Virus record (IMG/VR): IMGVR_UViG_3300017748_000003
Location: 1-64,000 of that record
Strand: one strand, 5' to 3'
Length of the DNA stretch: 64,000 nucleotides
DNA from: a virus
Each line of letters opens with the position of its first letter. The first letter of the stretch is position 1. The notes beneath the pieces were generated by a model that saw nothing but the letters and a program-made list of their open reading frames with translations, was not told the origin of the DNA and searched no databases. This document shows, one piece after another, positions 1,203 to 64,000 of this stretch. A program made the position numbers and the translations under genes.

Positions 1203-3878
1203 TTAAGAGATAAAAGCTACTCCGTCTTCCGGTGGATCGCTAGTTGTCTCTTCTCCTTGGTCGTGCTTAAGACCCTTAAGGACTACGAAACCCCTAGGAT
1301 CAGATTCACCGTCTTCCGTATCAAACCTACCAAGTCTTGCACGAATTGCAAAATTAGCTGTGCGAGGAGGAACACAACCCCCAGATACAGCACCATAAAG
1401 CCTCTTCTTAGCAATAAACTTCTCCACAGAACTCTCTACTGTGCGTTGAATCGTAGCTCCGAATCTATGTATAGTAGATGTAGGCATAAGCACGATACGC
1501 TGTTCAAACAGAGGAACTCCTCGGAAGTTAATATTGTCTAGGTTTGGACCTATAGTAGACGGTGTTGTGTCCTCCACAGCTTCACCTATCTCAACCATAA
1601 GCCACCAGTAAGCTCTAACCTCAGACTCACGTATAGCTGCTTCTAACGAGAAATTAAGATCAAGGGTTTTTTTCGTTCTAAGCTGATTATCATTAACGTG
1701 TAATTCAAACAGGAGACGCTCAAAGTGCTTAGGATAAAAAGAAGTCTCACCTACAACAGTAATGTTGTGAGTTCCAGACCCATCGTCAGTAAACGTAACA
1801 GTAGTTCCGCTACTATCTTCAAGAGTAAAAGTTCCTGCGTCAAAGTCTGCTGTTGCTATAAAATAATCAACGCTTGTAGATAATCCAGCAGGTAACGTTC
1901 CTGTAGTCTCTAGCTGAACCTCAGCACCTTCCGGCAAATAATTATTACGGGTTGCTGAAGTATCAAAATTAAAGAGGCTAGCAGACGATGAAAAGGTAGT
2001 AGTAAACGCTACATCATCGTGAGCACCATACTTAAGAACTGGATACCATATAAACCCGTCAGAGCCTACGAAATCTCCATCCTTAGCTGTAAGACTCTTA
2101 TGGCCCCTGCCGCTAGGTATAAGAACGTCACTCCCTGTATTATTTTGATACACTTTATTTGCGTAAGCAGATCCAGCCGTAGGGACAGGAACAGGCAAAT
2201 CTTCTACAGTAACATCATGTAATGCTGGAAGTAATCCACCTGCTCTACCAAACGGAGTCATGTCTAAATCAACAAGACCTTGACCTTCTTCTATAGATTG
2301 AGTCTTAGATACGTTTTTACGGTCAGGATAAACCTCAAACAGACTTGGAAGTGTCCAGCGAGCCGACTCACCGGGATCATCCTCATTTTCCTCGCTTCTT
2401 ATACTACCCCCGATAAGTTCAAGAGCAGACAAACGTGAGTTTATAGAATCAAGCAAAGTTTGAAGTCCAGTAATTTCTGAGATTGTGTGAGTATGATCAT
2501 CAAACTGAGAAGTCTCAGTAAGCCCCATCACAGTTATTAAAACCCCAGGAGACGCTGGAGCACTCGTAAAGGTAACTGTAATAGAATTACTATTACTTCT
2601 AACGAAAGTATAATCAGTCCCTTCCACTAAGGAATCTCCTGGAGAGGAGTTCTCAGATATAATAACTGCAATTCGATCCTCATCCAAATTATGATCAATA
2701 ACATACACCGTAGTAGTAGAAGAACTAATTTGAGTAGAGTAATGCTGATTACCTGTAGATACCTGAGAAGGATCAAAAGGATTATAGCTAACGTGTGTAG
2801 GAGGTCTTAGCCAGTTAATAGGAGCGGAAGTAGCTAATTCGTCCCAATCGCTAGCTTCTACAAAAGTAACATCCTCACGAAATACTGTGTGCCAGTAGTA
2901 AACTCCGGGATCGTCAGGGTCTTCTATTTGTAAGCGAACCTCCAGAACCAGAGTAGTTTCATCTAGAGACTGCATAAGATCAGCCATCTCTCTAGTAGCT
3001 GTATCAAGAGTAATAACCGTATCTGCGTTAGGACCGTCAAAAATTTCAACTCCGAGAAGGTCTTGGTCTATACCAGACATATCACCTTCAAAATAAATAT
3101 AGGCAGTAGACTCGTAAGGATTCTCTACAGTCCAACTTCCACCTTCGTCTGCCAAAACCTTAAGCTTAGTTTGAATATCCTCTACGGTGTCGCTAAGAGA
3201 TATAGGCTTAGTCCTAGCACTTCCCCTACTAAGACGAAACGTCCCCTTAAATGTAGCGGGGATAAACATCTTTTGTATCTCAGGGATTTTAGTATCCCCA
3301 GATACAGCACCCGCACGAAGTTCAGTAACAGTAGGTATTGGCGGGTTCTGAAGCTCATAGTCAGAGGTATGAGCAACAGGAGTTCTAATAACTCTAATTT
3401 CATGCTCCACTATACCGCCTCGCTCGTAAGTCCGAACCCTAACGTGAGATACTGGATGTATTCTATTAGACTCTATAGTAAAAGTCTGAATTGTAGTAGG
3501 GTCATTAGGGAAGGTAACTATTAATGACTCATCTCTGCTAATAACCTCAACATCACCAGAAGAGAAAGACGCAAGTGCTTCGATAGCGGTCTTAAGATCA
3601 GCAGCAGAAACGTCGTGGTCAATAGTTGCCGTGTCCTCTCCGTTAATATCTAAAACCCAAGTGCCGGAGGTAGGGCGCGTATCTACAACACCAATACTAG
3701 CTGTTATAGCATTAATAGTAGGCTCAACCTCAATAGGTATTCCTTCTCTAGTCTCCCTAAACCTCGCCTTAATACGGATAGTCTCACCCACAACTACCCC
3801 TCCGACAGCCACAGAGTCTCCATCTAGAGAACTAAAAAAGCCCTTAGTTCCAATATCGAAATATCCAGATAGGTCCAT
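1203..3878 (-). CDS. Large tail tip/baseplate-region structural protein
   Basis: 891 aa, acidic, beta-rich; 'LETTGTLPAGLSTSVDYFI...FTLEDS...GSGTH' and 'HTHTISEITGLQ' motifs typical of tail proteins; downstream of the tape measure. Confidence 0.6.
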   Translation of the reverse strand: MDLSGYFDIGTKGFFSSLDGDSVAVGGVVVGETIRIKARFRETREGIPIEVEPTINAITASIGVVDTRPTSGTWVLDINGEDTATIDHDVSAADLKTAIEALASFSSGDVEVISRDESLIVTFPNDPTTIQTFTIESNRIHPVSHVRVRTYERGGIVEHEIRVIRTPVAHTSDYELQNPPIPTVTELRAGAVSGDTKIPEIQKMFIPATFKGTFRLSRGSARTKPISLSDTVEDIQTKLKVLADEGGSWTVENPYESTAYIYFEGDMSGIDQDLLGVEIFDGPNADTVITLDTATREMADLMQSLDETTLVLEVRLQIEDPDDPGVYYWHTVFREDVTFVEASDWDELATSAPINWLRPPTHVSYNPFDPSQVSTGNQHYSTQISSSTTTVYVIDHNLDEDRIAVIISENSSPGDSLVEGTDYTFVRSNSNSITVTFTSAPASPGVLITVMGLTETSQFDDHTHTISEITGLQTLLDSINSRLSALELIGGSIRSEENEDDPGESARWTLPSLFEVYPDRKNVSKTQSIEEGQGLVDLDMTPFGRAGGLLPALHDVTVEDLPVPVPTAGSAYANKVYQNNTGSDVLIPSGRGHKSLTAKDGDFVGSDGFIWYPVLKYGAHDDVAFTTTFSSSASLFNFDTSATRNNYLPEGAEVQLETTGTLPAGLSTSVDYFIATADFDAGTFTLEDSSGTTVTFTDDGSGTHNITVVGETSFYPKHFERLLFELHVNDNQLRTKKTLDLNFSLEAAIRESEVRAYWWLMVEIGEAVEDTTPSTIGPNLDNINFRGVPLFEQRIVLMPTSTIHRFGATIQRTVESSVEKFIAKKRLYGAVSGGCVPPRTANFAIRARLGRFDTEDGESDPRGFVVLKGLKHDQGEETTSDPPEDGVAFIS

Positions 3879-3934
3879 AATAAATTAAGTTAGGGTAACG
3901 TTTAGTAGGCAATCAGTCAAGTTAAGGACATCAA

Positions 3935-4153
3935 TCATTCTTCAGTGCGGATAATTTCTCCAGGCCTAAAAGTCTCTGCCTCATCCACACTACCGATAAG
4001 GTCAGATTTTTTAGGTATAGCCCCGCCAATTACCGCTATATCAATAGGGAAGGGTATCATATTAAAAGGGAATAAAGGCTCTAAGCCCGTAGGATCTCTA
4101 AGATCCTCATCCTCTAAAAGCTCAGATTCCCCTTTAGGGGTAAGACCACTCAT
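3935..4153 (-). CDS. Small hypothetical protein in tail module
   Basis: ATGA overlap with 4150..5208. Confidence 0.55.
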   Translation of the reverse strand: MSGLTPKGESELLEDEDLRDPTGLEPLFPFNMIPFPIDIAVIGGAIPKKSDLIGSVDEAETFRPGEIIRTEE

Positions 4154-5891: not shown

Positions 5892-5909
5892 TTGCACGAA
5901 GGGCAAAAC

Positions 5910-10580: not shown

Positions 10581-10657
10581 GTTAACGGTTCCATCTCAGG
10601 GAGGTTCAAAGCCCTCCCCTTTAGATGTCGTTTTTGCACAACGGGCAAAAGCTTCTA

Positions 10658-13633: not shown

Positions 13634-13718
13634 TAAATCTAAAGGTAGCAGATATAATGCTACTAGACTTTGCGATTCAGTGCAAGTTTAAAATAAACAC
13701 TAAGAATTGCACAGAGTG

Positions 13719-13761
13719 CAAAAAAACACCCCGCCTAGACTAACGAACTAGACGGGGTGTT
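13719..13761 (-). terminator. Intrinsic terminator after the major capsid gene
   Basis: ACACCCCGTCTAG/CTAGGCGGGGTGT stem followed by a T run on the minus strand. Confidence 0.85.
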
Positions 13762-16576: not shown

Positions 16577-16638
16577 GCTATTTACTGTAACCTCTGACAA
16601 TATTATACGCAAGAAGTTTTGCACATCGTGCAAATTGA

Positions 16639-17610
16639 TCATCTAACCCTAGCTGGGCCTGTGTAAGGGAACGCCTCCATTACTAATGGGGGAGGAGATC
16701 CATCCCTAAGATAAAACCCAGAAGCGAATATAACGCCGGTATGATTAGGGTGAAACACAAGCTCACGCTCTCTCCATATAGGAACATTAGATATATTACA
16801 GGTAGGATTACCGTCTATGTGCGGTGATGCAATCTCAACACCCGCACAACCAAAAACCGAAAGATGGCTCACAGACCCTGCGTGTTTCATTGATAATTTA
16901 GTGCCTAAATCCGAAGCCTTGCCCATCTCAGTTCTTGATATAGTAGCAATTCTAGACTCACCTATCTTATTAGCGTCTCTTATAGAGTTAGCCACCTCAG
17001 CCTGATTAAACCCTAACTGTATTGATCCAGCTACTACCTCCTTAATCCTTCTTTCGGTAGTTTCGTTAATACCCCTAATACCAGAGGCAACCTCATTAAC
17101 TCTCTGATTTAACTCTGATCGAAAGGCAGGTAACGGCTGCCAAGGCTCATTTAAATTTGTCCTGTTCAGCAAGGAGCCTACCTTAACATAAGCATCAGAA
17201 GATACAGATTGAACTGCTGGAAGAATATCAAGAACTAACTCATCAGACATAACAGCGAGAACGCTGATAATTGATTCTTCCCATATAGACGCTTGTTGGT
17301 CTTGCGTAAGTCTTACTTCAGACCTAACGCCATAAACTCTTCTAGAAGTAGATAATGCTCGGTCTATTATAGACTCTTTAAGCCTCTTAAAATACTTAGA
17401 CAATTTTTCGTCAAGAAGTCTCTGTCCACGACCACGAGCAAAACGTTGTATATTAGAGATGTCGTAGTTAAGCTTAACACCTGCATCACCTCGCGTATTT
17501 TCCCATGTCCAGCCCTCGTCGGGCATTTTACTGCGACTATACCTCTGGAATATCTTCCAAGGTGACTCACGGCGGTAACGAGTCCTTATTCTATTAAAGG
17601 CTTCGCTCAT
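16639..17610 (-). CDS. Minor head protein (Mu gpF/SPP1 gp7-like)
   Basis: 'INETT...IATISRTE...HPNH' pattern; between portal and protease. Confidence 0.75.
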   Translation of the reverse strand: MSEAFNRIRTRYRRESPWKIFQRYSRSKMPDEGWTWENTRGDAGVKLNYDISNIQRFARGRGQRLLDEKLSKYFKRLKESIIDRALSTSRRVYGVRSEVRLTQDQQASIWEESIISVLAVMSDELVLDILPAVQSVSSDAYVKVGSLLNRTNLNEPWQPLPAFRSELNQRVNEVASGIRGINETTERRIKEVVAGSIQLGFNQAEVANSIRDANKIGESRIATISRTEMGKASDLGTKLSMKHAGSVSHLSVFGCAGVEIASPHIDGNPTCNISNVPIWRERELVFHPNHTGVIFASGFYLRDGSPPPLVMEAFPYTGPARVR

Positions 17611-17620: not shown

Positions 17621-19870
17621 CTATATCAATTCTCTTCTTCTTGCCTCAGAAGGCCAGTAAGTCATGCCAGCCCTGCCGCCCCAAAGCTGTGCTGCGGCAT
17701 AAGCAGGGCTACCTTTTGGTTCGTCTAAGAATCTTTTATTTCTTCCCCACCAGCGATTAGCTTTAGAAGTCCATTCATCAGTAGGCATACCGCCAGAGAT
17801 AAAGTCCTTAGCCATCCTTACAGTTATTGGCTCCAAGCCACCACCTGTTTCCCCATTCTCATGCCGCCTAATTCCATCTCTATAGGAGGCTATAGCTCCT
17901 TTTGGGGGTTTTCTGCGCTTAACAGCTTTTTCTTCTTCCTCGTCATCGTTGTAGCTGGATTTATCTTCCTCTTCCTCGTCATCGTAGCTATATTTATCCT
18001 CTTCCTCATCGTCGTAGTAAGAGTCTTCTTGTTCTTCTTGTCTTATGTAAGTCAAGTAAGCGTGAGGTTGATCGCTATGGGTTGCTCCCACCATAGGTCC
18101 TCCGTCTGGATGTATATGGTAATAACCTACATATTCCTCGCCCGTTCTTGTCAAGACTAACTCTCCACCTTCAGTATAAAGATTTTCTACCAATCCGGGA
18201 GGATTTTCACCATCGTGATACCCTTTACTAGATAAAGGATGTCCTTTAGGAAGAAGGTCTGTGTCATGCTTGCCGCTCCTAAATCTACCGTTTCTTAAGA
18301 CATATAAGAACGAGTTTACTCTAGCGTAAGCCCACTGATCTGGCGATGTAACGTTCGGTCTAACAGAGCCTGGATTTGTATTATAAGCACCAACACCCCG
18401 TTTAAATACCGCTATAAGCGTGCGTAGGTTAGTCCTCTTTGTTTTAGCGTTACCTACTTTTTCGTTATGATCCTTAACTTTCTTTTGTAGACCTTTACGA
18501 ACTGCGGCACTTACATCTTTTTCTTGCTCCTCATCCTCTTCCTCATCGTCATCTTCGTCGTGATAACTCTTATCTTCTAAGGACTCAGAGATCTCATTAT
18601 CGGTAGGGCTTGCTAACCCAGACATCTCAAGAGGGATAACTTGAAAATTCACAGTAAATATATCCATAAGAGGATCATCTACCAACTCAAGATGCGCCCG
18701 TTCTCTAACCTCATTACGGGTCATAATACCCCTATCAACCAAAGGACCAAAATCTTTAGAGATCTGCTCCATGTCCACAAGACCATCAAAGTCATAGGAC
18801 AGCATAAGGTTTGCGTTTTTAGCAGAAATAAAACCATCGTTATTCAGCTTAGTAACGATAACGTCAATGAGTGGAACGATAGTGTAACGTCTAAAATTAA
18901 CTTCCTCTTGCCTAGATGTAGCATAATTCTGAGCATTCTTAAGCCCAAAGACAGAAAGAGGAACACCGTGATTAAGAATAATCTGCTCAGTAGTCCACCT
19001 CTCTTTTTCCAGTGCTTGCATCTCAGCCATAGTCATGCCGAGCTTAATGTAATTCCAATCACCGTTAAGAAAGGCCGTCTTTCCGGCGTTTTCTTTACCA
19101 CCGTAGTCAGCTTCCCACTTAGACTTAAGTGCCTCCCACTGATCTTGATCCTCGATAGAATCTTTTCTGTGTAAGATACCAGAGGGCTGAGCACCTTGAC
19201 TAAGAAACTTTTCGTTAAGGGTATCCTTGTTAATAAAATCGTTAAAAACGGCTTCAGATCCTTCTACGTCTCCAAGACCCATGCACAAGTCGTTAGGGTG
19301 CGTGCGCTTAAAGTGTATAATCTCTTTAGCATCAAAAATAATTTCTTGCCCATTAACTCTGTAAATATAAGAAGATATTTTCTGCTTACGGTCTGGGACA
19401 GGTTCGATGTGCTGAGGCAGTAATGGATAAAGTGCGGTAGGTCTACCTACCAAATCAACTTCATCTTTAAGCCAATAAGCGTTTCCTGTAAGCCCAAGAT
19501 GCCAACAGGTAAGAGCCATTACATCTGTCCAAGTATCGTAAGGGTTAGGCTCCGTAAGAAAGCCTCCCTCAGAAAAATTACCAGCACCAGAAACCCTGCT
19601 ACCGTTCTTATTAGGATCAACTACTTTAAATCTAGCTGATATAACACGAGATTCTATCAGCCTCATACACCTAAAAGTAACCCATACTCTTTTGCATCCA
19701 GCGTCTAAGTAAGACTGATAGTCAGTAAACTTATGAATAGGTATACCTAAAGCGCGTTCAATATAGTCACGCTCTTTAGTAGATACAAGAAACCGCGACA
19801 TCATCGCAACGTCTGACGGAGATGCGTTCTCCGTCCTAAAAGATTTATTTCGCTTAAGGAACCCTAGCAT
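17621..19870 (-). CDS. Portal protein (HK97 family) with ~330 aa C-terminal multi-domain extension
   Basis: 'LTGNAYW', 'LYPLLP', 'EIIHFK', 'GAQPSGIL', 'NAGK', 'GIMTRNEVR'; the extension has acidic linkers and three further domains. Confidence 0.92.
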   Translation of the reverse strand: MLGFLKRNKSFRTENASPSDVAMMSRFLVSTKERDYIERALGIPIHKFTDYQSYLDAGCKRVWVTFRCMRLIESRVISARFKVVDPNKNGSRVSGAGNFSEGGFLTEPNPYDTWTDVMALTCWHLGLTGNAYWLKDEVDLVGRPTALYPLLPQHIEPVPDRKQKISSYIYRVNGQEIIFDAKEIIHFKRTHPNDLCMGLGDVEGSEAVFNDFINKDTLNEKFLSQGAQPSGILHRKDSIEDQDQWEALKSKWEADYGGKENAGKTAFLNGDWNYIKLGMTMAEMQALEKERWTTEQIILNHGVPLSVFGLKNAQNYATSRQEEVNFRRYTIVPLIDVIVTKLNNDGFISAKNANLMLSYDFDGLVDMEQISKDFGPLVDRGIMTRNEVRERAHLELVDDPLMDIFTVNFQVIPLEMSGLASPTDNEISESLEDKSYHDEDDDEEEDEEQEKDVSAAVRKGLQKKVKDHNEKVGNAKTKRTNLRTLIAVFKRGVGAYNTNPGSVRPNVTSPDQWAYARVNSFLYVLRNGRFRSGKHDTDLLPKGHPLSSKGYHDGENPPGLVENLYTEGGELVLTRTGEEYVGYYHIHPDGGPMVGATHSDQPHAYLTYIRQEEQEDSYYDDEEEDKYSYDDEEEEDKSSYNDDEEEEKAVKRRKPPKGAIASYRDGIRRHENGETGGGLEPITVRMAKDFISGGMPTDEWTSKANRWWGRNKRFLDEPKGSPAYAAAQLWGGRAGMTYWPSEARRRELI
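17931..18030 (-). repeat. Three imperfect ~30-33 nt tandem repeats encoding (K)SYxDDEEEE in the portal extension
   Basis: DSYYDDEEED / KYSYDDEEEED / KSSYNDDEEEE. Confidence 0.8.
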
Positions 19871-20661: not shown

Positions 20662-20693
20662 AACAAGTAAAGTATTTGCACGAAGTGCGAATG

Positions 20694-21335
20694 TCAATGG
20701 CGGTTACGCCGCTTATGCCTAGTAGCCCTATTACGATCAGCACGGTTCTTATCTCTTTTCTTACGCATAGCCCTATCTCTATCCTCTTTCTTACCTCTAG
20801 CCATTTGAACCTTAAGCTTAACCGCAGCCCTAAGACGCTCAAATCCTGTAAAAAGCAGTTGAGTTTGTTCTTCGTCAAGCTCTTCACCCTCTTTCGTTAC
20901 AAAAGCTTCTCCGTGAGTAAAGACTGGATGATCAGTCCTATCTCTAAGTAATAACCCTCCCTTAGTAACATGGTTAACCGCAGTCTCAGACTTGTTCCTT
21001 ACTAACTTCTGATACTCTTCCAAAGACGGGGCATACCATTCATGTGTTATATCGTCCACATCATACTCACCAACCTTTACGGTATAAAAACTAGATAACA
21101 TATAACCATCACACACTAATGCCTCAGTTCCGTGCATATTAAGAAGTTTAGATGACTTCTTTTGGCAAGGTATAGCTGGCTGAGAAGATCCGTCAGCACA
21201 ATCAACGGTATAAGTAATATCCCCGCACTTACTACAGATGTAAGCATTAACTCTAGGAGCCAGCCTAGAATGCTTAATAGTATTAATATTCTTAATCCTA
21301 CTAGATAACCTAGCTATCCTATCTTCTGCAATCAT
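20694..21335 (-). CDS. Hypothetical protein with Cys motif and Arg-rich C-terminus
   Basis: CSKC plus further Cys; 213 aa. Confidence 0.7.
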   Translation of the reverse strand: MIAEDRIARLSSRIKNINTIKHSRLAPRVNAYICSKCGDITYTVDCADGSSQPAIPCQKKSSKLLNMHGTEALVCDGYMLSSFYTVKVGEYDVDDITHEWYAPSLEEYQKLVRNKSETAVNHVTKGGLLLRDRTDHPVFTHGEAFVTKEGEELDEEQTQLLFTGFERLRAAVKLKVQMARGKKEDRDRAMRKKRDKNRADRNRATRHKRRNRH

Positions 21336-22329: not shown

Positions 22330-22902
22330 TCAAGATAAATCAATAGATCTACGTCCAGTTCTTCTCCCAGACAGAACTATCATCTTCAAAGTCTCCTTCT
22401 CTTTAGGAGGAGCAACATCAATCTCCATAACACCTGACCCGTCACATTTAGGGCATCTCTCAAGATCAATAAAATCAGAATCTCTCTTCTCAATCCGACC
22501 AGTGCCTGAGCACTCAGCGCAAGGAACCTGCATTTTCGTAGCATGGCTATCTACCTGAGCATCCAGAAAAACCAGTATGCATACCTCAGCCTTAGCCTCC
22601 CTGTCTACCTGACTATAAGAACGATAATCTACTGCGAACTGAGCCTCTATGTCCCTGAGTAAATAATCAACTGCGCGAATAGCGGTAGTCCCTAAATCCA
22701 CAGCGCACTTAGCGGATTCGTCAGGCAAGATATGACTACCTTCCTCCAAAACGTAAAACGCTATCCTAAACGCACGCTCACCTATCTGCTCATAACTCTT
22801 AATGGTCACAGCGGGAACATCTACAGAGAACATATAGTTAAGCTTATCAACAATCCCTGCGCTAACTTCAGCAGCAGACATTTCGTTAGTAAGTGTTCTC
22901 AT
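22330..22902 (-). CDS. Hypothetical protein with DnaJ-type zinc-finger repeats
   Basis: CAECSGTG and CPKCDGSG (CxxCxGxG twice). Confidence 0.7.
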   Translation of the reverse strand: MRTLTNEMSAAEVSAGIVDKLNYMFSVDVPAVTIKSYEQIGERAFRIAFYVLEEGSHILPDESAKCAVDLGTTAIRAVDYLLRDIEAQFAVDYRSYSQVDREAKAEVCILVFLDAQVDSHATKMQVPCAECSGTGRIEKRDSDFIDLERCPKCDGSGVMEIDVAPPKEKETLKMIVLSGRRTGRRSIDLS

Positions 22903-23096: not shown

Positions 23097-23118
23097 TACC
23101 TTAATTTTGCACGGCGTG

Positions 23119-23955
23119 CTATTTATGGCAAGGCCATACACACTCCTCTGGGCGTTTATCTTCACGCCACCTAATCTGACTATCCACTCCACGCACCGCA
23201 TTAGGATGTCGCATAGATCCAGAGTCAAATATATGCCAGCCTTTCACCTCCAGCACCCTACCCTTAAACTCGTCAAAATTCTCAAATATATACCTCCCCT
23301 CAATATCAGTAAACCCCCCGCCAACCTTTACCTTACTCACAAGCTCCCCTTCTTCGTAAAGGCCGCACAGCAGATTACCCACCATTCCCTTACGCCTACC
23401 CCCACCTTCATTCACCCCCATAACAACGTAGTCCATCGTAAACACCTGCTTACGCCTCCACACCGTAGAGCCTATGTAAGCCTCCTTACTGTTCTTCCAG
23501 ACCAAACCCTCTGCATCCCCATTCTCCACGTATTCGTCCCACAGAGCTTCGGAACGATCAGCAGGGTAATGCTCAGCCATCTTAAGAAAAGAGCAGCCGG
23601 AAATACATTTCTCAGCCATCATCTTCCTATCCACGCAACTATTCAAATACACATCCTGACATCCTACAGAAATACAATCAAACACCTTAACCACTCCGGT
23701 ATCTCCGTCTGCCCCTTCAACCGCTCTCTGAGTCCCAACCAGATACTCTCCGATATACACTCCATCCAAAGCCTTAACCTCTTTCTCAGCTTTCAACTGA
23801 CCTTGACGAGAAAAAACCTGAGCAACCCCACTTCTAACCACAACCCTAGCCCACCACCCATCATACTTAATCTCTACAATGTCAGCACCCCTAGCAACAG
23901 CAGTCTCGTGGTCCTCCACATTCACATACTTTTGAATCCTCTTTGTAAAATCCAT
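23119..23955 (-). CDS. ATP-dependent DNA ligase (minimal adenylation plus OB domains)
   Basis: Motif I EIKYDG, 'FSRQG', 'YIGE', 'VFD', 'EGLVWK', 'KVGGGFT', 'MRHP', 'WREDK'. Confidence 0.92.
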   Translation of the reverse strand: MDFTKRIQKYVNVEDHETAVARGADIVEIKYDGWWARVVVRSGVAQVFSRQGQLKAEKEVKALDGVYIGEYLVGTQRAVEGADGDTGVVKVFDCISVGCQDVYLNSCVDRKMMAEKCISGCSFLKMAEHYPADRSEALWDEYVENGDAEGLVWKNSKEAYIGSTVWRRKQVFTMDYVVMGVNEGGGRRKGMVGNLLCGLYEEGELVSKVKVGGGFTDIEGRYIFENFDEFKGRVLEVKGWHIFDSGSMRHPNAVRGVDSQIRWREDKRPEECVWPCHK

Positions 23956-24453: not shown

Positions 24454-24926
24454 GCAAAAAACATATAACTATCCAAATTTATTATTGCACGAACGTGCAA
24501 ACTGTCGTTAAGGCAACCCACAAATGACAAGGGGGAAACCCAGCGGAATGGAAGAGGGTATAGGCGAGCGTAGCGAAGCCGACGCGCGACACACTACTCA
24601 CCCAATAACCTTCCACGATACCCCACACAGACCAGACCACGCCGACAATCAATTAAAACAATACCCAAATCTTTATTCGCTATCTATAACCCTGTTTGTT
24701 TGCAATACTATAAAAAACCAACATAAATACCCCACGGGACAAACTCTGTTCAGAGCCGGGGGGCACCAGGGAATTTAACCCCCCACCCCCCTCTGTTGAG
24801 GACGGGCTACACTAAGAGAGTAAAGCCCTACGCCAACCCTCCAAAGCTACGACAAGGAGCCTACCACCTCACGGTGTTATCACCAGCGCACTACGGGCAG
24901 AACCGTAAGAGTGTGTAAGCGGACGC

Positions 24927-25652: not shown

Positions 25653-25731
25653 AACACCCAAGTATAGCTCACCCACGAACATTTGCAAGCAATAAATGCA
25701 TATTTTTTTTAACTTTCTTTGCACGGCGTGC

Positions 25732-25758
25732 AAAAGGGAGGACCGCTAAGCCCTCCCT
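25732..25758 (-). terminator. Intrinsic terminator
   Basis: GGGAGGGC/GTCCTCCC stem plus TTTT. Confidence 0.65.
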
Positions 25759-27170: not shown

Positions 27171-27449
27171 AACACCCAAGTATAGCTCAGGAATGATTCT
27201 TTGCAAGTAAATAATGCATATTTTTTTGCACGACCGGCAAAATGGGCAAAAACCTTCATTTCGCCCCTAATCCATCCTAAAGCTTTTCAAGGGTCCCCAC
27301 AGCGGAGAGGGTCCCGGACGCGCCTACGGCCCTCCTGTGGCCCGTTTCTATGTCAGCATTAATGTAGGCATTTTCATACGCTAGCGTTGCGTCCCAGTAA
27401 CAAGTCACCCCCATAATATAGCTCAGTATCGTTTATTTGCAAACTTTTA

Positions 27450-28200
27450 TTTTGGCGCGATCGCGGCGGTCAATCTAGACTAATCTGCCGCTCGGGTCTC
27501 CAATTAGGTCGGCCCCATTTATCGGTGCGCGTTAGTCCCGGTTAGGTTGCGCCGCTTAGCTTGGCCTTAGTCCGTGGCCTTAGTCGGCGGTTAGGTTGTG
27601 GCCTAAACATTTGCACGGTCGGGCAAACGGTTGGTGCGGCGGTAAGACGGAGGCTAGTGTTGTGAGTTGTCTTATCGGTAAAGCAGACAGTCAGCTTAGT
27701 GTGTTAGCCGAGGTAGAGTTAGTGTGTTGTCGGAGCGTAGAGTTGGCTGTTGTTTTCTTTAGCGGTGCATATCTTATGCTCGGTCTTGCACGAACGTGCA
27801 TCTTCGACTTGGCTAAATCCTTTGTATCAACGACTTACATAATCCTTCAATTATCTCTTATATTCTGTCTTGTCTTATGTCTTGTATGGGGTTTTAAGTT
27901 GTCCCTGCCGCAGACCTAATCCTTAGTATTACTCTTCCTCTAAAGGGGAAACCTTGTCCTTATACCTGCCGCAAATCTGTTAAGTTATCTCTTAGATTAT
28001 CCTAAATCTAAATCCTTCACGCAAAGGTAAACCGCAATCGTTAAGTAAATCCTAAGATATTTAAGTTACATATTGACTTGGGTATTAGTGTTACCACAGG
28101 CTTGCCGCAAAGCTAAGCTCTCTTGCCGCACCTAACGCGCCGTAATACATAAGCAGGGATTACCACGGCGGATTATATGATCGGCGCGTCTAAAGCGATC
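27450..28200. other. Non-coding block with short repeats and an IHF-like site; candidate terminus/packaging or origin region
   Basis: No credible ORF; TTAG-rich repeats at 27530-27600; TGCCGCA four times; WATCAANNNNTTR match at 27825-27837. Confidence 0.4.
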
Positions 28201-28413: not shown

Positions 28414-28449
28414 TATGTTGTTGGATTCTCGGTTTGCACGGTGTGCGAA

Positions 28450-33843: not shown

Positions 33844-33898
33844 AATACGTAAGGTTACATTTGCACGAATGGCAAACCATCAACGCTAAGATCTTTGC

Positions 33899-36701: not shown

Positions 36702-37904
36702 TCACACAACGGAATCCTCGTGTTCGTCATGCGTTTGCACGATGGGCAAATCACCGTCTTTAGGGTCAGATGCTTCTGTAGCTTCTTTTCTAGCTTTTCG
36801 GTTAGCTTTGGCGATTCCATAATTCTGAGGTGCAGCCATAAAATTATCCATCTTTACTCCCTCCCAATCATTACATAAAACAGCACGGGCTTGGCATTTA
36901 TACATACCCTTTTCATTATGACCAGCTAGGTCTAGCTCCATCCTAGCAAAATTTTTCTTAAATCTCTCTTTCCAATCTTCGTCTTCTATAAGCTTATCTA
37001 ATAAATGATCCCTATACTCACGCCAACCAGAGAACATTGGTGGAACTTCTTTTGGGAAATAATCAGCAAAGCCCATCTTACCTGCCATATCTATTCCTGA
37101 GATTCTTTGAACTAACTTCTCGTAAGTCTCAGGCTCCACTTCTTGAATTATAAATAAAGACCATACCGCTGTTTCATGGTGGACGTTAGATACTCGCATC
37201 TTACCCGTCTCAACCCCATAACGATAAAAATGATCGTAAAGCTTACAGTAAGACCAGCCATGCTCGTGAATTGCCTTCCAGACATCAGTATATGACCAAT
37301 CGTAAATAGGATAAAAGGTAAGATTAGGGTTCTCCTCCTTCTGAGTTATCTTAAGCTTTTTAACCCAAGTAACCCATTTGTGTCCCGGAGTTCCTGTAAG
37401 TCCAGCAGCGCGTGAAGGGGACTCTTCTGCTCGGACACCAGCTAAAAAAGCTGTTCTCTTATCCGGCCATATAGCTTTTGGTATATGGGTAAACATCTTA
37501 CTAAAACGATCAGTCCCTAAGTTGTTTTCTGTAATAGCGTAATCTTCCTTAGGACGAATCCACCGATCCTCCTCCTCAGGACTCCAGCACTGTAACCAAT
37601 GCTCTTCAGTAGATGTAGCATTAAAGAGCCTAAAAGGAACCTGTAACCAGTAAGGCTCAACATCAGGGTGCTCCATCTGCTCTCTTACAGCATCAATGGT
37701 AGCTTGCCACTCTGCTTCTTGATCAAGGAATAACACTTTAAGCTTCTCACCACGGGATTGAGCCTCAGCCAGAGCAAGTTCAAATACGATTGTAGAATCC
37801 TTACCCCCAGAAGAACTAACTACGACGTTCTCAAATTCATCAAAGATCCACTTGATCCTCGCCTTTGCCGCCTCAAGAACGTTTCTATTTGAGTAAATTT
37901 TCAT
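36702..37904 (-). CDS. IbrA-like PAPS reductase-family (PP-loop) protein
   Basis: 'VSSSGGKDS', 'FLDQEAE', 'GVRAEESPSR', 'YPIYDW..DVW', 'MRVS'. Confidence 0.9.
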   Translation of the reverse strand: MKIYSNRNVLEAAKARIKWIFDEFENVVVSSSGGKDSTIVFELALAEAQSRGEKLKVLFLDQEAEWQATIDAVREQMEHPDVEPYWLQVPFRLFNATSTEEHWLQCWSPEEEDRWIRPKEDYAITENNLGTDRFSKMFTHIPKAIWPDKRTAFLAGVRAEESPSRAAGLTGTPGHKWVTWVKKLKITQKEENPNLTFYPIYDWSYTDVWKAIHEHGWSYCKLYDHFYRYGVETGKMRVSNVHHETAVWSLFIIQEVEPETYEKLVQRISGIDMAGKMGFADYFPKEVPPMFSGWREYRDHLLDKLIEDEDWKERFKKNFARMELDLAGHNEKGMYKCQARAVLCNDWEGVKMDNFMAAPQNYGIAKANRKARKEATEASDPKDGDLPIVQTHDEHEDSVV

Positions 37905-41205: not shown

Positions 41206-41348
41206 GGATTAATATATCACAGATCCGAATATTTGCAAGTAATAAATACCTAGTGTTTTTGCACGCTGTGCAAACTAAAGACAGAGACTAGGAGTCTTTA
41301 ACGTCTTTTGCATCAGATAACTTTTCGCAAAGCATAACTAATCGTTCG

Positions 41349-46975: not shown

Positions 46976-47219
46976 AAATAAGTAAAATATAGTCTTTTCT
47001 AAAAATATTAGGCATAAGGACACGGCCAGCCTCAGGCATCCTAAGCATAAACGTAAGCAACTCCCCTCTTAGAGATCTATAAGCTACGCGATCAGCCTTA
47101 ACCCTTTTACCGGATACATGAGTCCCCATTTCAATAGCTATTTGCACGGCGTGCAATCCTGACCTAGCCACGATGTAACTAATCTTCCAATAACGGCTAA
47201 CTACTCGGTATAGATTCAT
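46962..47219 (-). CDS. Hypothetical protein
   Basis: 85 aa. Confidence 0.55.
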   Translation of the reverse strand: MNLYRVVSRYWKISYIVARSGLHAVQIAIEMGTHVSGKRVKADRVAYRSLRGELLTFMLRMPEAGRVLMPNIFRKDYILLIYEDD

Positions 47220-49343: not shown

Positions 49344-50339
49344 CTACCCTTCCTCTGGAGCGTTGTGAACTGCAATCCACTCCGTAATTATATGATCCAT
49401 ACAGGCAGACTCGGTAGCCTCAGCACCGATAACCTCCCTAGCAGTATCAAACGCCTTGCGCCAATTAGTAGCCATATCCTCAGGAGCAGCTAGATGGAAA
49501 GTCTCCACCTTAGCAGTCTGACGAGAGCCATGCACCGACCCTTCAGTATCATTGCTGACCAACTCCTCGGTAACATAATCGTGAAGCTCGACCGCAGTAT
49601 GATCCTTAGCCTTCTTAAGCCAATCACCTACGTTATCCTTAGTAAGATGCTCTTTAAGGGGGATAAGCTCTCTTAGCTTAGTCCACCCTACCTTAGCAAT
49701 AGCAGACTCAGTAGTAATCTGCGAGAAGCACTCGTAGATATTAACGTAGTAATCAGCAGTCCTAGGGGCTAAACCTAGCTCGTCCTTAACATACTGATTA
49801 AACCCCGTAAGGTCTGATCCGTAAACAGGAACCTCAATGCCTTCGTCATTCTCTTCTACAACTTCAGAGTGAAGATTATTACGCTTAATAAAGGCCAAGA
49901 TACCTCCTAACACCCAGACCGTCTTCTCCTTACGCTCAGCGTAATCATAAGCTGCATCAAGGGCATCTCCTTTGTGCTCCTTCAAAGCAGCAGTAATGGA
50001 TGCGGTCTTCTTAAACTTAGGAACAACGCTTTCCAGCAACTCATCTGCTTCCTCCTCTAAGACTTTTGCCTCATCCTCTAAAACTTCTGCTTCGGACTCT
50101 AAGTCTTCTGCCGACTTCTCTTCAGCTTTTGGCTTTTCCTTTAGAACCTCAAACTCTTCAGAATCTAAAGAGTCTTCAATCCCATCCTTACCCTCTACAT
50201 TATAAAGGTCTTCCTCTGGGTCGTAGCCTGTAACAGTAAGCATAGCCCCCGCTTCTAAATCGCCTTCGGGCATACCCTCTGCGTATTTAATGAACTTAAC
50301 CTTAGTCCCATCGGGAATAATCTGTTTCTTTTTTGCCAT
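49344..50339 (-). CDS. Hypothetical acidic protein with its own promoter and terminator
   Basis: ATG at 50339; N-terminal small beta domain, acidic linker, 'KVGWTKLREL' core. Confidence 0.8.
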   Translation of the reverse strand: MAKKKQIIPDGTKVKFIKYAEGMPEGDLEAGAMLTVTGYDPEEDLYNVEGKDGIEDSLDSEEFEVLKEKPKAEEKSAEDLESEAEVLEDEAKVLEEEADELLESVVPKFKKTASITAALKEHKGDALDAAYDYAERKEKTVWVLGGILAFIKRNNLHSEVVEENDEGIEVPVYGSDLTGFNQYVKDELGLAPRTADYYVNIYECFSQITTESAIAKVGWTKLRELIPLKEHLTKDNVGDWLKKAKDHTAVELHDYVTEELVSNDTEGSVHGSRQTAKVETFHLAAPEDMATNWRKAFDTAREVIGAEATESACMDHIITEWIAVHNAPEEG

Positions 50340-50471
50340 ATTGTATTGTTGGTAGTGTTTATTAAGTGGTAGCCGGAACACCCAGCATTCACGAGAAAGA
50401 CTATAGCACAGCGCGGGAATGTTTGCAAGCACTTTTTTACTTACAGTCAAACAATTTGCACGAATTGCAAA

Positions 50472-50894
50472 TCATCTTCTTGTTCTTTTAGCCTTAGCCA
50501 GCGTTACTCCTTTGCGTTGGAGCCTCTCTGCTTTACTCTTTCTGTCGTGACAGTTCTTGCAGAGAGCTTGGAAACCTTCAACCTCTACAAACATCCTTTC
50601 AATGTAAGTATCCCAATCAACAAAACCTGTATTAGGATCTACCACTGGCTTAATATGATCTGCTCTCATCTCGCTCTGAGGGAACAAATCATCGCACATA
50701 GAACACTTATGAAGTTTACACATTCTACCCGTTTTAGGGTTAGGGCCTCTGCTAACAAAAGCTCTCTTAATGCATAAATACTTAGGACCCCATCTAGTTG
50801 AAGCATTACGGATAGCAGACGTAATGAAGCTACGAAACCGCGCCTCAGTCCACTGATTTGTATTCCTAGTTTTTGGGCCTCCTAATGGCATCAC
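50472..50894 (-). CDS. HNH endonuclease
   Basis: 'CSMC..ADHIKPVV..QALCKNCHDRKS'. Confidence 0.85.
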   Translation of the reverse strand: MMPLGGPKTRNTNQWTEARFRSFITSAIRNASTRWGPKYLCIKRAFVSRGPNPKTGRMCKLHKCSMCDDLFPQSEMRADHIKPVVDPNTGFVDWDTYIERMFVEVEGFQALCKNCHDRKSKAERLQRKGVTLAKAKRTRR

Positions 50895-52152: not shown

Positions 52153-52698
52153 TTAAAACGGGCAGTTAGAATCTGTATCAGACCCCCAATCAATATCAGA
52201 TAAAGTTGACTGATCTATCCAATCATCCTCCTCTGGGCTTTCACTAGAAGGGAGACCTATGCCTATTTCATGCAGCATAACCCAACGGCCATCACCTAAC
52301 TGAATTTTTTTCTCGTAACACCCTTTTCTAGAGTTTTCGGAGGCAGTAATAACTCTTACGTTTTCTACCGAATAACCTAACCTAGCGTTAATTCTATCTA
52401 TATGTAACTGCTCGGCTCCACGACCCTTTGCATCAAGGTATCCACTAGCTTCAGCTATAGCCATAAATTCATCGTAGGTAAGACTAAACGATATATTTTT
52501 CCTAGAAGCGCGGGACTTAACCTGATGATAAGAGTTACGTCCAGGATTCCTAACTCTCCAAACACGCTGCTTGCATTTAGAGCAAAGCTTACGGTGCTTA
52601 AGATGCGGGTTTCTACAGTGCTTTACAGCGCAAAGCCTACCTTTATCGTGCTCAACCAGAGTAACAATATCTTCAAGAGGAATGTCAATCTCAGCCAT
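52153..52698 (-). CDS. HNH-like endonuclease domain protein
   Basis: N-terminal Cys motifs; 'HIDRINARLGYSVENVRVITASENSRKG'. Confidence 0.7.
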   Translation of the reverse strand: MAEIDIPLEDIVTLVEHDKGRLCAVKHCRNPHLKHRKLCSKCKQRVWRVRNPGRNSYHQVKSRASRKNISFSLTYDEFMAIAEASGYLDAKGRGAEQLHIDRINARLGYSVENVRVITASENSRKGCYEKKIQLGDGRWVMLHEIGIGLPSSESPEEDDWIDQSTLSDIDWGSDTDSNCPF

Positions 52699-53889: not shown

Positions 53890-53922
53890 AAATGTAACTG
53901 TGTTCTTTGCACGGTGTGCGAA

Positions 53923-54225
53923 TCAATTTTCCGCTCCTTCCATAGCTTTATCGTATTCTTCGTCTAAGTATTTCTCCACCAGAGCGGAAGCTCTTTCCTT
54001 AGCCTCGTCATAATCCTTGTCGGTTACACCGCACGGAACTACAACATTAACGTGAACTTTCACAAAATCGAACTCGCTTACTTTCTTAGTAAGCCCACCT
54101 CCGACTTCTACTGATCCTAATTCGCCCTCAGTCTCTTTGCCCGTCACTTCAAAGCTAACAGGACTTGTCCCCGTTGTAGCTTCTCCATGCTTGACAGACC
54201 TTCTTGATCTCTTTGCTGTTGTCAT
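53923..54225 (-). CDS. Hypothetical protein
   Basis: 100 aa. Confidence 0.7.
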   Translation of the reverse strand: MTTAKRSRRSVKHGEATTGTSPVSFEVTGKETEGELGSVEVGGGLTKKVSEFDFVKVHVNVVVPCGVTDKDYDEAKERASALVEKYLDEEYDKAMEGAEN

Positions 54226-54779
54226 TATTTATTAAGCTCGGTCATCTTCTCATGTAATTCTATGATAACCAAATTATCGGTTGCCCTAAAAGCCGAACGT
54301 CCTGCAAGACCATCCCTAAGAACTCTAGCTAATCCATCAGCCTCCTTAACAGTAAAAACTCTCTGGCCTTCTACAGTAGAACGTGTAGGTCTTGGAAATT
54401 TGTTAGACTCAATCCAACCAGACAATACTTTAGGAACAATACCTATAACCTCTGCCATCTTGTCTATAGTAAGAACCTTCTTAGATCTAGTAGAGCTACC
54501 TATCTTCATCTTCCTAGTAACCGTAAAGGCCGCAGCGTTACCTGCGTGACCCCCAAATCCTTTAGCTTCAAAGCTACCTGTAGAATCTCTGTAAGATTTA
54601 CGAGAACGCTTAATACACTTGCGCCGATACTCTGCATCTTTCTCGTAACGCTCTCGCCTAACTTTAAGATATTTCTTCTGATATTCCTTATTACGCTTCC
54701 TACGAGCCTCATCAGCTTCTTCTTGTGTAGCGTATTTTCTTGGCCTACCGGGACCCGCCTGTTTGTTACTTGCACTCAT
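54225..54779 (-). CDS. DNA-binding protein with MerR/excisionase-type HTH
   Basis: AT-hook-like 'GRPRK'; 'LTIDKMAEVIGIVPKVLSGWIESNKFPRP...RVFT'. Confidence 0.7.
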   Translation of the reverse strand: MSASNKQAGPGRPRKYATQEEADEARRKRNKEYQKKYLKVRRERYEKDAEYRRKCIKRSRKSYRDSTGSFEAKGFGGHAGNAAAFTVTRKMKIGSSTRSKKVLTIDKMAEVIGIVPKVLSGWIESNKFPRPTRSTVEGQRVFTVKEADGLARVLRDGLAGRSAFRATDNLVIIELHEKMTELNK

Positions 54780-56176: not shown

Positions 56177-56212
56177 CCCCTAATATAATTTGCACACAGT
56201 GCGAATCAGACC

Positions 56213-59010: not shown

Positions 59011-59079
59011 AGATTTAGTATAGCACAGAAACAGAATGTTTGCAAGCAATTTTTCGGAAAGATTTGCACGAAGTGCAAA

Positions 59080-63334: not shown

Positions 63335-63336
63335 AT

Positions 63337-63939
63337 TTATGTAATTGAGATCTGACGCTGCTTAAGGCGGTTAATAAATCTATTAGAGAATGGGTTACTT
63401 TGCGGGGTGCTTTCTTCTGTAATAAAAGGGACATCATTAAGCATAATTAACGACTTTCCAGACGATAGCCACCTTAGAAGAAACCACTCAATCCTAGCCA
63501 TCTGGTCTGCTGAAAAAGGGAGCCTATCCTCTGTAATTAAACCATCAATAGCAAGAACTCCCCTGCCGTCTAAACGATCATCTTGCATAGGAGACCCAGC
63601 CTCAATAATAGACCATAGGGTATCGCAATCTAAAGCGAAGACAGGAACCCTCCTAATAACCAAAGCTCTCACAAACATATAAAAAGCATCACATATTATT
63701 GACTCAGTTCCTACTACCTCTAAAACCCTGCCCCTCTTGCTCAGACCTTTAGCCCCTCCTGTTCGTAGCCACAGACCAAGCCTAGTCCCTACCTTACCCT
63801 GCTCCATAATAGAGAGATCAGGGTCTTGGTAACTCATAGGAACACCGGCATAACTCATAGCACGTAAGATATCCTCTGATGGAATCTTATGATGCTCTCC
63901 TTCTTCAATGTCAATATTACTCATCAATCCAATCATCAA
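63337..63939 (-). CDS. Possible degenerate DnaC/IstB-like helicase loader
   Basis: 'AGVP..Y', 'VLAIDGL' Walker-B-like, no intact Walker A; directly upstream of dnaB. Confidence 0.4.
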   Translation of the reverse strand: MMIGLMSNIDIEEGEHHKIPSEDILRAMSYAGVPMSYQDPDLSIMEQGKVGTRLGLWLRTGGAKGLSKRGRVLEVVGTESIICDAFYMFVRALVIRRVPVFALDCDTLWSIIEAGSPMQDDRLDGRGVLAIDGLITEDRLPFSADQMARIEWFLLRWLSSGKSLIMLNDVPFITEESTPQSNPFSNRFINRLKQRQISIT

Positions 63940-64000
63940 ACGTGCCGCCTCCTGACTTTAACTTAGACTTAGGTTTTGCACGCTGTGCAATTCTTCCTTC

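Follow-up and report, generated by a model that had tools for sequence, protein, structure and literature searches.

The window, the whole stretch of DNA that was analysed (64,000 nt), comes from the 74-kb record of an uncultured tailed phage (G000), whose genes all lie on the minus strand. A 15-17-bp palindrome with the consensus t-TTGCAC-N3/4-GTGCAA-a recurs along it, always in the orientation of the genes, with 23 copies in the window and 26 in the whole record compared with ~2-3 expected. All 23 starts listed in a first-pass annotation, which had reported about 23 copies, are present in the sequence; 20 match TTGCAC-N3-GTGCAA with no more than two mismatches, and those at 24485, 27611 and 27786 belong to the same element, their spacer being 4 nt instead of 3. 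Past the window end, three further copies lie at 65127, 67116 and 70720. The copies in the window and the genes of two candidate reader proteins are as follows.

1337..1351, minus strand, element with 5' arm TTGCAA; in the last ~45 codons of an 891-aa tail gene, upstream of gene 460-1197
5892..5906, minus strand, element with 5' arm TTGCCC; stop 3 nt upstream, ATG directly downstream; the homologous G004 junction is occupied
10634..10648, minus strand, element between tail genes; G005, G006 and G009 have a copy at the same junction
13707..13721, minus strand, perfect element after a terminator-like hairpin that follows the capsid gene; TTGCAC -35-like box 21 nt downstream
16619..16633, minus strand, perfect element 5 nt past the stop of 16639-17610
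20676..20690, minus strand, element with 5' arm TCGCAC, 3 nt past the stop of 20694-21335
23107..23121, minus strand, element with 5' arm TAGCAC, where the ligase gene ends
24485..24500, minus strand, element with N4 spacer; predicted promoter TTGCAA-16-TATAGT begins 31 nt downstream
25719..25733, minus strand, perfect element after a terminator-like hairpin; predicted promoter TTGCAA-16-TATACT 30 nt downstream
27226..27240, minus strand, element with 5' arm TTGCCG; predicted promoter TTGCAA-16-TATACT 19 nt downstream
27611..27626, minus strand, element with N4 spacer within an ORF-free stretch
27786..27801, minus strand, element with N4 spacer within an ORF-free stretch
28434..28448, minus strand, element with 5' arm TCGCAC, 1 nt past a stop codon
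29254..29268, minus strand, element with 3' arm GTTCAA; predicted promoter TTGCAA-16-TATAGT 27 nt downstream
33861..33875, minus strand, element at the junction of a ParB-N gene and terS
36735..36749, minus strand, element within the final 11 codons of the IbrA-like gene and ahead of the IbrB-like gene; the G006 junction is also occupied
41259..41273, minus strand, perfect element; predicted TTGCAA promoter 20 nt downstream
47142..47156, minus strand, perfect element downstream of a 531-aa gene; its sole overlap is with a doubtful 85-aa ORF
49344..50450, minus strand, gene of the 368-aa candidate reader (SH3/KOW-like barrel, Lys-rich linker, ParB/KorB-like HTH DNA-binding domain)
50456..50470, minus strand, element 1 nt past a stop; predicted promoter 27 nt downstream; the 368-aa gene has its ATG 116 nt downstream of the element
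53907..53921, minus strand, element 1 nt past a stop and 17 nt before the RecA-like start; the G004 junction is also occupied
54225..54779, minus strand, gene of the second candidate reader, 184 aa (basic N-terminal region and MerR/CarH-type winged HTH)
56190..56204, minus strand, element 13 nt before the SF2 helicase start; the G004, L131 and L132 junctions are also occupied
59064..59078, minus strand, perfect element 1 nt past the PolA stop; predicted TTGCAA promoter 18 nt downstream
63976..63990, minus strand, perfect element in the last ~20 codons of a 397-aa gene, 36 nt before the next start

The element is strongly enriched. Dinucleotide shuffles of the window gave 1.7 +/- 1.2 matches against 21 observed, and the codon-preserving shuffle suggested in the first-pass annotation gave 3.0 +/- 1.3 (maximum 7) against 25. 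The 21st pattern match in the window, at 52571, looks like a chance occurrence. Conservation is limited to the element and one flanking base, and the third spacer base, read on the coding strand, is a pyrimidine in every copy. The widest gap is 5.9 kb, in keeping with the ceiling of about 6 kb given earlier, and the density peak described at 24.5-29.3 kb is reproduced. The motif had been noted as not a known one, which holds: full-text literature searches found no published mention of it in these phages.

Copies concentrate at gene junctions, as had been claimed. Although coding sequence fills all but 7.7% of the genome, 16 of 25 sites fall largely in non-coding DNA; a called start follows within 120 nt for 76% of the 25, compared with 19% of random positions. 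At least 10 copies begin 1-5 nt after the stop codon of the upstream gene; downstream, an ATG follows several elements within 0-5 nt, and for about one-third of G000 sites the next ATG is merely 5-20 nt away, leaving no room for a promoter, so a single role in transcription initiation cannot cover all sites. Three copies had been placed inside coding sequences: 1337 and 36735 fall, like 63976, in the final 10-45 codons of the upstream gene, and 47142 lies in the doubtful ORF. The element is also oriented, as proposed, when read on the coding strand: the 3' arm is constant, (C)GTGCAA, and variation falls on the 5' arm, the weaker arm being the 5' one in 16 G000 sites and the 3' one in 2.

Related phages, another check that had been suggested, carry the element clade-wide with lineage-specific arms. 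Across relatives of 43-63% GC the frame TTG-xxx-(N3/4)-xxx-CAA is kept and the inner arm bases change jointly on both sides (CAC/GTG, CAA/TTG, ACC/GGT, AAA/TTT and AAG/CTT); eight larger genomes spanning that GC range each carry one arm type in 13-45 perfect copies. The dyad is found in all lineages, most copies being perfect in G004, G006, G008 and G009; spacers of 3 and 4 nt coexist inside G000 and inside G004, where the loops include GNRA-like ones. Polarity is strong in G000, G005, G006 and HJ05, and partial in G009, G010 and G002. Sites of the type TTGCAAT-NN-ATTGCAA occur in a more distant group to which the cultured phages RcZahn and HJ05 belong; for HJ05, both the array (7 sites, ~1 expected) and a copy upstream of its homolog of the 368-aa protein were predicted beforehand and then found. 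The shared frame, the lineage-specific change in both arms and the number of perfect copies together point to a specific reader encoded by the phages, rather than to a host factor or simple inheritance.

Some of the sites are associated with predicted promoters. By crude promoter predictions, a sigma70-like -35 box lies within 45 nt of 30 elements compared with 2.9 expected. The intervening gaps cluster at 7-10, 15-22 and 27-32 nt and are helically phased (vector strength 0.48 at 10.5-11.5 nt, P ~0.003, from 30 non-independent sites and the same crude predictions). The gap to the predicted -35 box is 7-10 nt in G009, G005, G007, G010, L093, L159 and the RcZahn group, and 15-32 nt in G000, G004 and G006 (18-31 nt in the window phage). 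A promoter-like partner is lacking at most sites.

The most likely reader of the element is the 368-aa protein encoded at 49344-50450. Its family is found in every element-bearing locus, including RcZahn (gp66) and HJ05, and the lineage's own element precedes the family gene at a conserved offset in 22 of 29 loci; G005, G007 and G009 lack a clean element there. The gene is probably autoregulated, because an operator-plus-promoter unit precedes it in nearly all lineages. In the structure model, an SH3/KOW-like barrel forms the N-terminal part and leads into a disordered Lys-rich linker, and Pfam returned no ParB-N (CTPase) match for seven members of the family. The model of the DNA-binding domain (pLDDT 89) matches ParB-parS (6s6h, Z 8.4), Spo0J (1vz0, Z 7.4), KorB-operator (1r71, Z 6.2, 109 of 114 residues aligned, no detectable sequence homology to KorB) and 8qa8 (Z 5.8), all fold matches under the safe level for helical domains, where the Raf1 alpha-domain scores equally high. 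Foldseek matches to Noc have probabilities of 0.96-0.97 but E above 0.5, and at the sequence level the family gave no match to a ParB-type DNA-binding domain. In G006, the sole member of its subclade with a changed motif, the recognition-helix sequence is unique. The Vibrio phage SIO-2 encodes a distant homolog, yet has no such array, and no homolog was found in mycobacteriophages.

This protein was not among the binders listed in the first-pass annotation. The HTH protein listed there, 54225-54779, has a genuine MerR/CarH-type winged helix and ranks as the second candidate reader; its gene is missing from its slot in two site-bearing relatives and from the RcZahn group. The other two proposals fared less well: the supposedly wHTH-like protein 29677-30204 belongs to no detectable family, and no test tied the ParB-N/IbrB genes, that of the IbrB-like protein included, to the sites.

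With moderate confidence, we read the element as an operator bound by a phage-encoded dimer, likeliest the 368-aa protein, which partitions or times transcription and has co-evolved with the operator in each lineage. The earlier interpretation, that a dimeric protein binds the sites and acts across the genome, is the best supported; we infer the binding, the identity of the binder and its effect (repression, roadblock or activation) from the enrichment, placement, polarity, clade-wide co-variation and promoter phasing of the sites and from the fold and distribution of the candidates, all computed here. A dimer of the sequence-specific protein would bind the 15-17-bp operator on duplex DNA, each lineage co-evolving its own operator sequence with its own protein, and occupancy of ~26 junctions in a genome transcribed in one direction would divide and time its transcription. 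At about one-third of sites, on one helix face just upstream of sigma70-type promoters, the bound protein may touch or exclude RNA polymerase in the manner of KorB at OB sites close to promoters; at the remainder, in junctions too tight for a promoter, it may act as a polar roadblock or insulator comparable to stoperators.

It is unlikely that the sites instead serve as docking points outside transcription, for genome organisation, segregation, replication or packaging in the manner of ParB-parS or Noc-NBS, their junction position merely marking where a 15-mer is tolerated. Such a role would suit the ParB/Noc/KorB-like domain of the candidate reader, the many sites with no promoter partner, the three ParB-N-domain genes of the phage and the fairly even spacing, with all gaps at or below 6 kb. 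It sits poorly with an orientation that follows transcription, with phasing to -35 boxes and with a site consistently ahead of the candidate reader's own gene; no ParA-like partner is found among the annotated genes. The parS-like option of the first-pass annotation survives in the ParB/KorB-type DNA-binding domain of the best candidate, and falters on the missing CTPase domain, which clamp loading and spreading need.

A hairpin in mRNA or single-stranded DNA is also improbable, whether as a processing or 3'-end-stabilising stem-loop after stops or as a translation structure just ahead of the ribosome-binding site; its reader would be a nuclease or RNA-binding protein of the phage. Strict alignment with gene direction, the close stops and starts on either side, arms that change together between lineages and an invariant 3' arm beside a loose 5' arm would all be expected of one; the mixture of 3- and 4-nt spacers within G000 and G004, with GNRA-like loops in the latter, is natural for a hairpin loop and unusual for a rigid dimer. 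However, in G006 (20 of 25 copies), G009 and G010 the dyad continues inwards until just one central base is left, which argues against a hairpin, as the innermost positions cannot pair across a 1-nt loop. Variants of the G000 5' arm have no compensating change in the opposite arm, and the innermost arm pair of G005 is complementary in 15 of 43 sites, fewer than the 21 expected. Consensus elements of the AAA class reach merely -1.8 to -2.3 kcal/mol (MFE), polarity is only partial in three lineages, and copies upstream of predicted promoters would be absent from the downstream transcript. An intrinsic terminator or RNA stem-loop was rejected on the uncompensated variants, these weak energies and the lack of a U-tract after the element, where an A follows. 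A dimeric protein on duplex DNA is favoured over a hairpin by the central symmetry, the weak A/T-rich hairpins, the unselected pairing in one genome and the -35 phasing.

We give little credence to the sites being targets of a phage nuclease or modifying enzyme, whether nicked on a specific strand as in T5, hypermodified at the site or acting as recombination hot spots. Strand-specific nicks occur in T5 DNA, and this phage has a distantly T5-like capsid, two HNH/EndoVII-type nucleases and a resolvase in its replication module, a large modification operon and strand-polar sites. The HNH gene at 50472-50894 is, however, absent from G005, and the EndoVII-like gene from L131, L132 and G007, all of which keep their sites, and nicks give no reason for -35 phasing or for preceding one particular gene in every lineage. 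The nick consensuses of phage tf and the phiKMV group reportedly have no dyad symmetry. Least plausible is that the element is itself a promoter, used by a phage-specific RNA polymerase or sigma-like factor that escaped recognition: the elements do lie upstream of genes in every module, with short, A/C-rich leaders devoid of Shine-Dalgarno sequences and an arm, TTGCAA, identical to the phage's own -35 hexamer, but they are symmetric, lie at variable, phased distances upstream of complete predicted sigma70-type promoters and in several cases have an ATG within 0-5 nt, and neither a T7-type RNA polymerase nor sigma70 region 2 or 4 was found in four genomes (one complete).

The operator reading may extend further, a possibility we advance tentatively and consider somewhat doubtful. 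Throughout a large, mostly uncultured group of 75-100-kb one-strand siphophages (hosts of 43-63% GC; including RcZahn, RHph_TM16 and HJ05), one master protein may run the whole gene programme through a lineage-specific 'operator code' of 20-50 polar palindromes. This protein would have a ParB/KorB-type domain, would have lost the CTPase clamp and gained an SH3/KOW-like barrel, and would work at promoters and, at junctions that have none, serve as a directional roadblock. If true, this would be an independently evolved stoperator-like system in virulent phages of Gram-negative bacteria and a natural series of re-coded protein-DNA specificities. The array offers a natural experiment on joint shifts of specificity in a DNA-binding protein and 20-50 sites, a way to test how the large genomes of one-strand phages are split into timed units of transcription, and a simple sequence signature for marking gene-block boundaries in many uncultured phage genomes.

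Dispersed operator arrays are known from few systems, namely Cluster A stoperators, the unexplained Cluster O repeat and KorB on RK2; added here is a broad phage group with cultured members, in which array, polarity and likely reader can be traced across many re-coded lineages. Noc-NBS and ParB-parS of bacterial chromosomes (PDB 6y93, 6s6h) likewise combine dispersed 14-16-bp palindromes with a ParB-fold HTH dimer and give the best structural matches to the modelled domain of the candidate. Their proteins, in contrast, have a CTPase domain and serve division-site selection or segregation, and their sites are neither at gene junctions nor oriented with transcription. Cluster O mycobacteriophages carry a 17-bp palindrome, TGTTCGG-N3-CCGAACA, with 34 copies in Corndog and an inferred dimeric binder (PMC4351075). 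It resembles the element in its 7-bp inverted repeat, 3-bp spacer, >30 copies, frequent location in short gaps or near starts and positions conserved among relatives, but the likeness is of form only: the sequence is unrelated, orientation there is not meaningful, one-third of the Corndog sites lie well inside genes, and a single closely related cluster offers no co-variation series.

Cluster A stoperators (L5/Bxb1-type immunity repressor; PMC9283540, PMC6550527) are closer in that ~25-35 copies per genome occupy short intergenic gaps, are oriented with transcription and have lineage-specific sequences co-evolving with the binding protein, which is putative here. They are, however, asymmetric 13-14-bp sites of a monomeric repressor in temperate phages (PMC9283540), and neither an integrase nor a CI-type repressor was found among the ~60 proteins scanned from our 84% complete record. 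The stoperator-like option raised in the first-pass annotation is borne out in polarity and junction placement and not in symmetry, the element being a dyad. Stoperators stop elongating polymerase, and similar blockage here is proposed by analogy. KorB of the IncP plasmid RK2 binds 16-bp operators (OB) 4-10 bp or 45 to >1000 bp upstream of promoters (PMC11790492). The likeness comprises a ~16-bp palindromic operator scattered over the whole replicon, some copies close upstream of promoters (predicted in our case) and others far from any, a ParB-type HTH reader (here a candidate by fold model; PDB 1r71 shows the KorB DNA-binding domain on its operator) and, presumably, a self-regulating global circuit. 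The candidate differs from KorB in having an SH3/KOW-like barrel in place of the N-terminal CTPase domain, so that clamp sliding is not expected, and no KorA-like partner was identified; the replicon is an apparently virulent phage rather than a plasmid, and its sites are polar and ~2-4x more numerous.

The array of polar palindromic sites is real and strongly selected, and it is common to, and re-coded across, a wide group of phages. All 23 copies that the first-pass annotation placed in the window exist, three of them (24485, 27611 and 27786) with a 4-nt spacer, and three further copies lie in the record beyond the window. On the coding strand the element reads t-TTGCAC-NNY-GTGCAA-a, the third spacer base being a pyrimidine in every case. 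It is enriched over dinucleotide shuffles (21 matches vs 1.7) and over a codon-preserving shuffle (25 matches vs 3.0 ± 1.3 expected), and the element accounts for 25/27 coding-strand GTGCAA hexamers. The orientation and the junction bias that the annotation had described both hold: the coding-strand 3' arm is invariant and the 5' arm degenerate (16 sites vs 2), and 76% of elements lie no more than 120 nt upstream of a called start, vs 19% of random positions, with the stop codon of the preceding gene ending 1–5 nt before the element in at least 10 cases. Copies that had been placed inside coding sequences do overlap them, but only within the final codons of the gene upstream. Half-site avoidance, considered as a sign of a strand-specific cost, was dropped, being found only in the window phage (2 vs 10.6) and in 0/5 other genomes.

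Record IMGVR_UViG_3300017748_000003 (74,020 bp, 84% complete, 43.5% GC; the window is its first 64 kb) has the gene content of a tailed phage with a long tail, and every long ORF is on the minus strand:

Structural and packaging genes, minus strand: tape measure, HK97-fold capsid, portal, TerS and TerL
Replication and recombination block, minus strand: PolA, DnaB, primase, SF2 helicase, RecA-like protein, resolvase, Cas4-type exonuclease and ligase
33899-38416, minus strand, running into terS: DNA-modification operon with two paralogous ParB-N genes, an IbrB-like ParB-domain gene, an IbrA-like PAPS reductase with DUF3440, and glycosyltransferase-like genes
49344-50450, minus strand: 368-aa protein, candidate reader (the putative protein that binds the element)
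54225-54779, minus strand: 184-aa protein, second candidate reader

Neither an integrase nor a CI-type repressor was found among the scanned proteins, and searches for a T7-type RNA polymerase and for sigma70 regions 2 and 4 found none; the polymerase negative is weak because the control genomes of that search lack the family. Cultured relatives of the capsid, namely T5-like phages and one Microcystis phage, are only distant (28–30% identity). The portal protein (17621-19870, 749 aa) is extended at its C terminus by a long segment that matches DUF5824. A 190-aa protein (22330-22902) weakly matches Q-like antitermination proteins (E = 5.5e-5, 32 residues); along the direction of transcription, its gene comes just before the structural genes. 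The replication block includes two patchily distributed HNH/EndoVII-type nuclease genes, that at 50472-50894 being absent from G005 and that at 52153-52698 from G007, L131 and L132 (G numbers denote large viral genomes, G000 being the window phage, and L numbers further viral loci). Past the window end, at 65973-68778 (L071), an AAA ATPase (548 aa, phrog_8638) adjoins a DUF1257 protein; both are clade core genes, and the ATPase is common to Rhodobacter phage RcZahn too. In the early region, 27415-28200 (about 0.8 kb) contains no ORF; within it lie two N4-spacer elements and numerous short direct repeats, such as TGGCCTTAGTC(C/G)G in tandem and two copies of CGGTTAGGTTG. Scans of this stretch for Rfam families and tRNAs gave no match, and it may be a replication origin or may encode an unknown non-coding RNA.

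Relatives, namely nine more large genomes and about 60 loci, came from an exact-pattern scan of viral contigs and then from searches that used the capsid and RecA genes as anchors. The frame TTG-xxx-(N3 or N4)-xxx-CAA is kept in syntenic relatives (the close clade; 30–60% amino acid identity, 43–63% GC), and the inner arm bases are lineage-specific, altered on both sides of the palindrome:

CAC/GTG: G000, G002 and G004
CAA/TTG: G007, G010 and partly G005
ACC/GGT: G006
AAA/TTT with N3: G009
AAA/TTT with N4: G008
AAG/CTT: L102
AAC: L130
Hybrid of the AAA and CAA classes: L143

Each of eight larger genomes holds 13–45 perfect copies of one arm type (both spacer lengths pooled for G004), and in the larger genomes of the clade no conservation was found outside the element and one flanking base. 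The hybrid operator of L143 (IMGVR_UViG_3300020049_004541), TTGAAAAC-GTTTGCAA, has arms that differ at one position, with six copies facing one way and two facing the opposite way, and is an apparent intermediate between the two classes. A distant group, with only the replication block in common (RecA about 30% identical), carries sites of the type TTGCAAT-NN-ATTGCAA, up to 18 per 20 kb. It includes the cultured phage RcZahn, with 18 copies; these go unmentioned in the RcZahn paper, and full-text literature searches with motif words and RcZahn found no description of the element in these phages. Perfect TTGCAC-N3-GTGCAA copies were also noted in G001 (IMGVR_UViG_3300025762_000010), G003 (IMGVR_UViG_3300031999_000057) and loci L066-L070. 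G001 and G003 are contigs with several copies, yet none of their proteins matches one of the window phage at E below 1e-5; unrelated phage groups may have the same word, or the two contigs may span genome parts that are not shared.

Four results favour a site in duplex DNA rather than a hairpin. The palindrome extends to a single central base in G006, G009 and G010 (for example TTGACCG-T-CGGTCAA in 20/25 G006 copies), and across a 1-nt loop the seventh bases of the two arms could not pair. Computed RNA hairpin energies for AAA-class consensus elements are only -1.8 to -2.3 kcal/mol. The innermost arm position of G005 has A or C in one arm and G or T in the opposite one; 15/43 sites combine complementary bases there, vs 21 expected, so pairing is not selected. 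Variants of the 5' arm in the window phage come without a compensating change in the other arm. The annotation's binding site for a dimeric protein acting genome-wide thus stands as a favoured duplex dyad, but 3- and 4-nt spacers coexist in G000 and G004, and a dimer would need flexibility. Homogeneity within genomes and coupled change between them point to a specific phage-encoded reader that would co-evolve with its sites. Recognition by a host factor is rejected, since the frame is constant over 43–63% GC and the arms differ by lineage.

Part of the array is positioned relative to a family of predicted promoters in the window phage:

24426-29226, 41.2 kb, 50.4 kb and 59.0 kb, coding strand: predicted promoters with near-identical TTGCAA, 16–17 nt, and TATACT or TATAGT

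An A/T-rich 'tatttattgc' stretch often precedes these promoters, and those at 26364 and 27442 have no element upstream. Eight elements of the window phage lie 18–21 or 27–31 nt upstream of a predicted -35 box. Pooled over the clade, 30 elements have such a box within 45 nt vs 2.9 expected, with gaps of 7–10, 15–22 and 27–32 nt and none between (vector strength 0.48 at 10.5–11.5 nt, P about 0.003); in the RcZahn group the gap is fixed at 7–8 nt. This phasing suggests that the element-bound protein sits on one helix face relative to RNA polymerase. Two-thirds of sites have no promoter-like partner, and a search found no -10 box at a fixed offset after them; at about a third of sites the next ATG is just 5–20 nt off. 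A role in initiation is impossible at such sites, where a roadblock, insulator or structural role is therefore assumed. A sigma54 promoter is rejected by inspection, as its spacing would be wrong and it would be on the wrong strand.

The reader is tentatively taken to be the 368-aa protein, to which we give slightly less than an even chance. Its family is found in every element-bearing locus of both groups, and no other gene has the lineage's own element in front of it so consistently (22/29 loci, at about 100–122 nt in the close clade and 54–84 nt in the distant group), which looks like autoregulation. In the predicted structure an SH3/KOW-like barrel is followed by a disordered Lys-rich linker and then by a helical domain. 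The model of the latter domain on its own (pLDDT 89) matches ParB-parS (Z 8.4), Spo0J (7.4), KorB-operator (6.2) and KorB (5.8), the rest of the 9/48,161 chains at Z of at least 5 being Raf1 alpha-domains; Foldseek probability against Noc is 0.96-0.97. No sequence-level family was found in Pfam or PDB sequences, PHROGs gave an unknown-function family only, and a protein Atlas search gave leads only (DUF3102 and 'ParB HTH' clusters). An HTH-like core, GF..YV...LG...R(K/T)A.Y.(V/I).IY, is conserved, and G006, the sole member of its subclade with an altered motif, has a unique version of the core helix; beyond G006, no simple residue-to-base rule in the putative recognition helix is evident by eye. 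Aeromonas phage HJ05 was found solely through homology to this protein, and has seven TTG(C/A)AAC-NN-GTTGCAA sites in 26 kb vs about one expected, with the same polarity and loose 5' arm, one of them about 140 nt upstream of the homolog: an independent prediction from the protein that came true. Vibrio phage SIO-2, with a weaker homolog, was tried as a further positive case, and no such array was found.

The 184-aa protein, which the annotation had proposed as a binder, stays a candidate, though an unlikely one. Its N-terminal region is basic, it carries a winged helix of MerR/CarH type (PDB 2jml, E = 3e-5), and its gene is syntenic throughout the close clade, but the slot is empty in L131 and L132, whose sites persist, refuting a joint loss of gene and motif. 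It is undetectable in the RcZahn group, where gp59 and gp60 of RcZahn were rejected as homologs. Another or an additional reader takes up the rest of the probability beside these two proteins.

On balance, the array is most likely an operator network for a putative phage DNA-binding protein acting on transcription, and the cultured members RcZahn and HJ05 make direct testing of the reader and of the sign of its effect possible. KorB has 'proximal' operators 4-10 bp upstream of promoters (PMC11790492), which the phased gaps between elements and predicted -35 boxes resemble. In form, the element is close to identical to a 17-bp repeat, itself unexplained, in Cluster O mycobacteriophages (PMC4351075). 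The array is a member of none of KorB/OB, the Cluster A stoperators and the Cluster O repeat, because KorB and ParB have a CTPase domain that the candidate 368-aa reader lacks, the stoperator is an asymmetric monomer site whereas the element is a dyad, and no homolog of the candidate reader was found in mycobacteriophages. By analogy, it would work most like KorB/OB on RK2 and the Cluster A stoperators.
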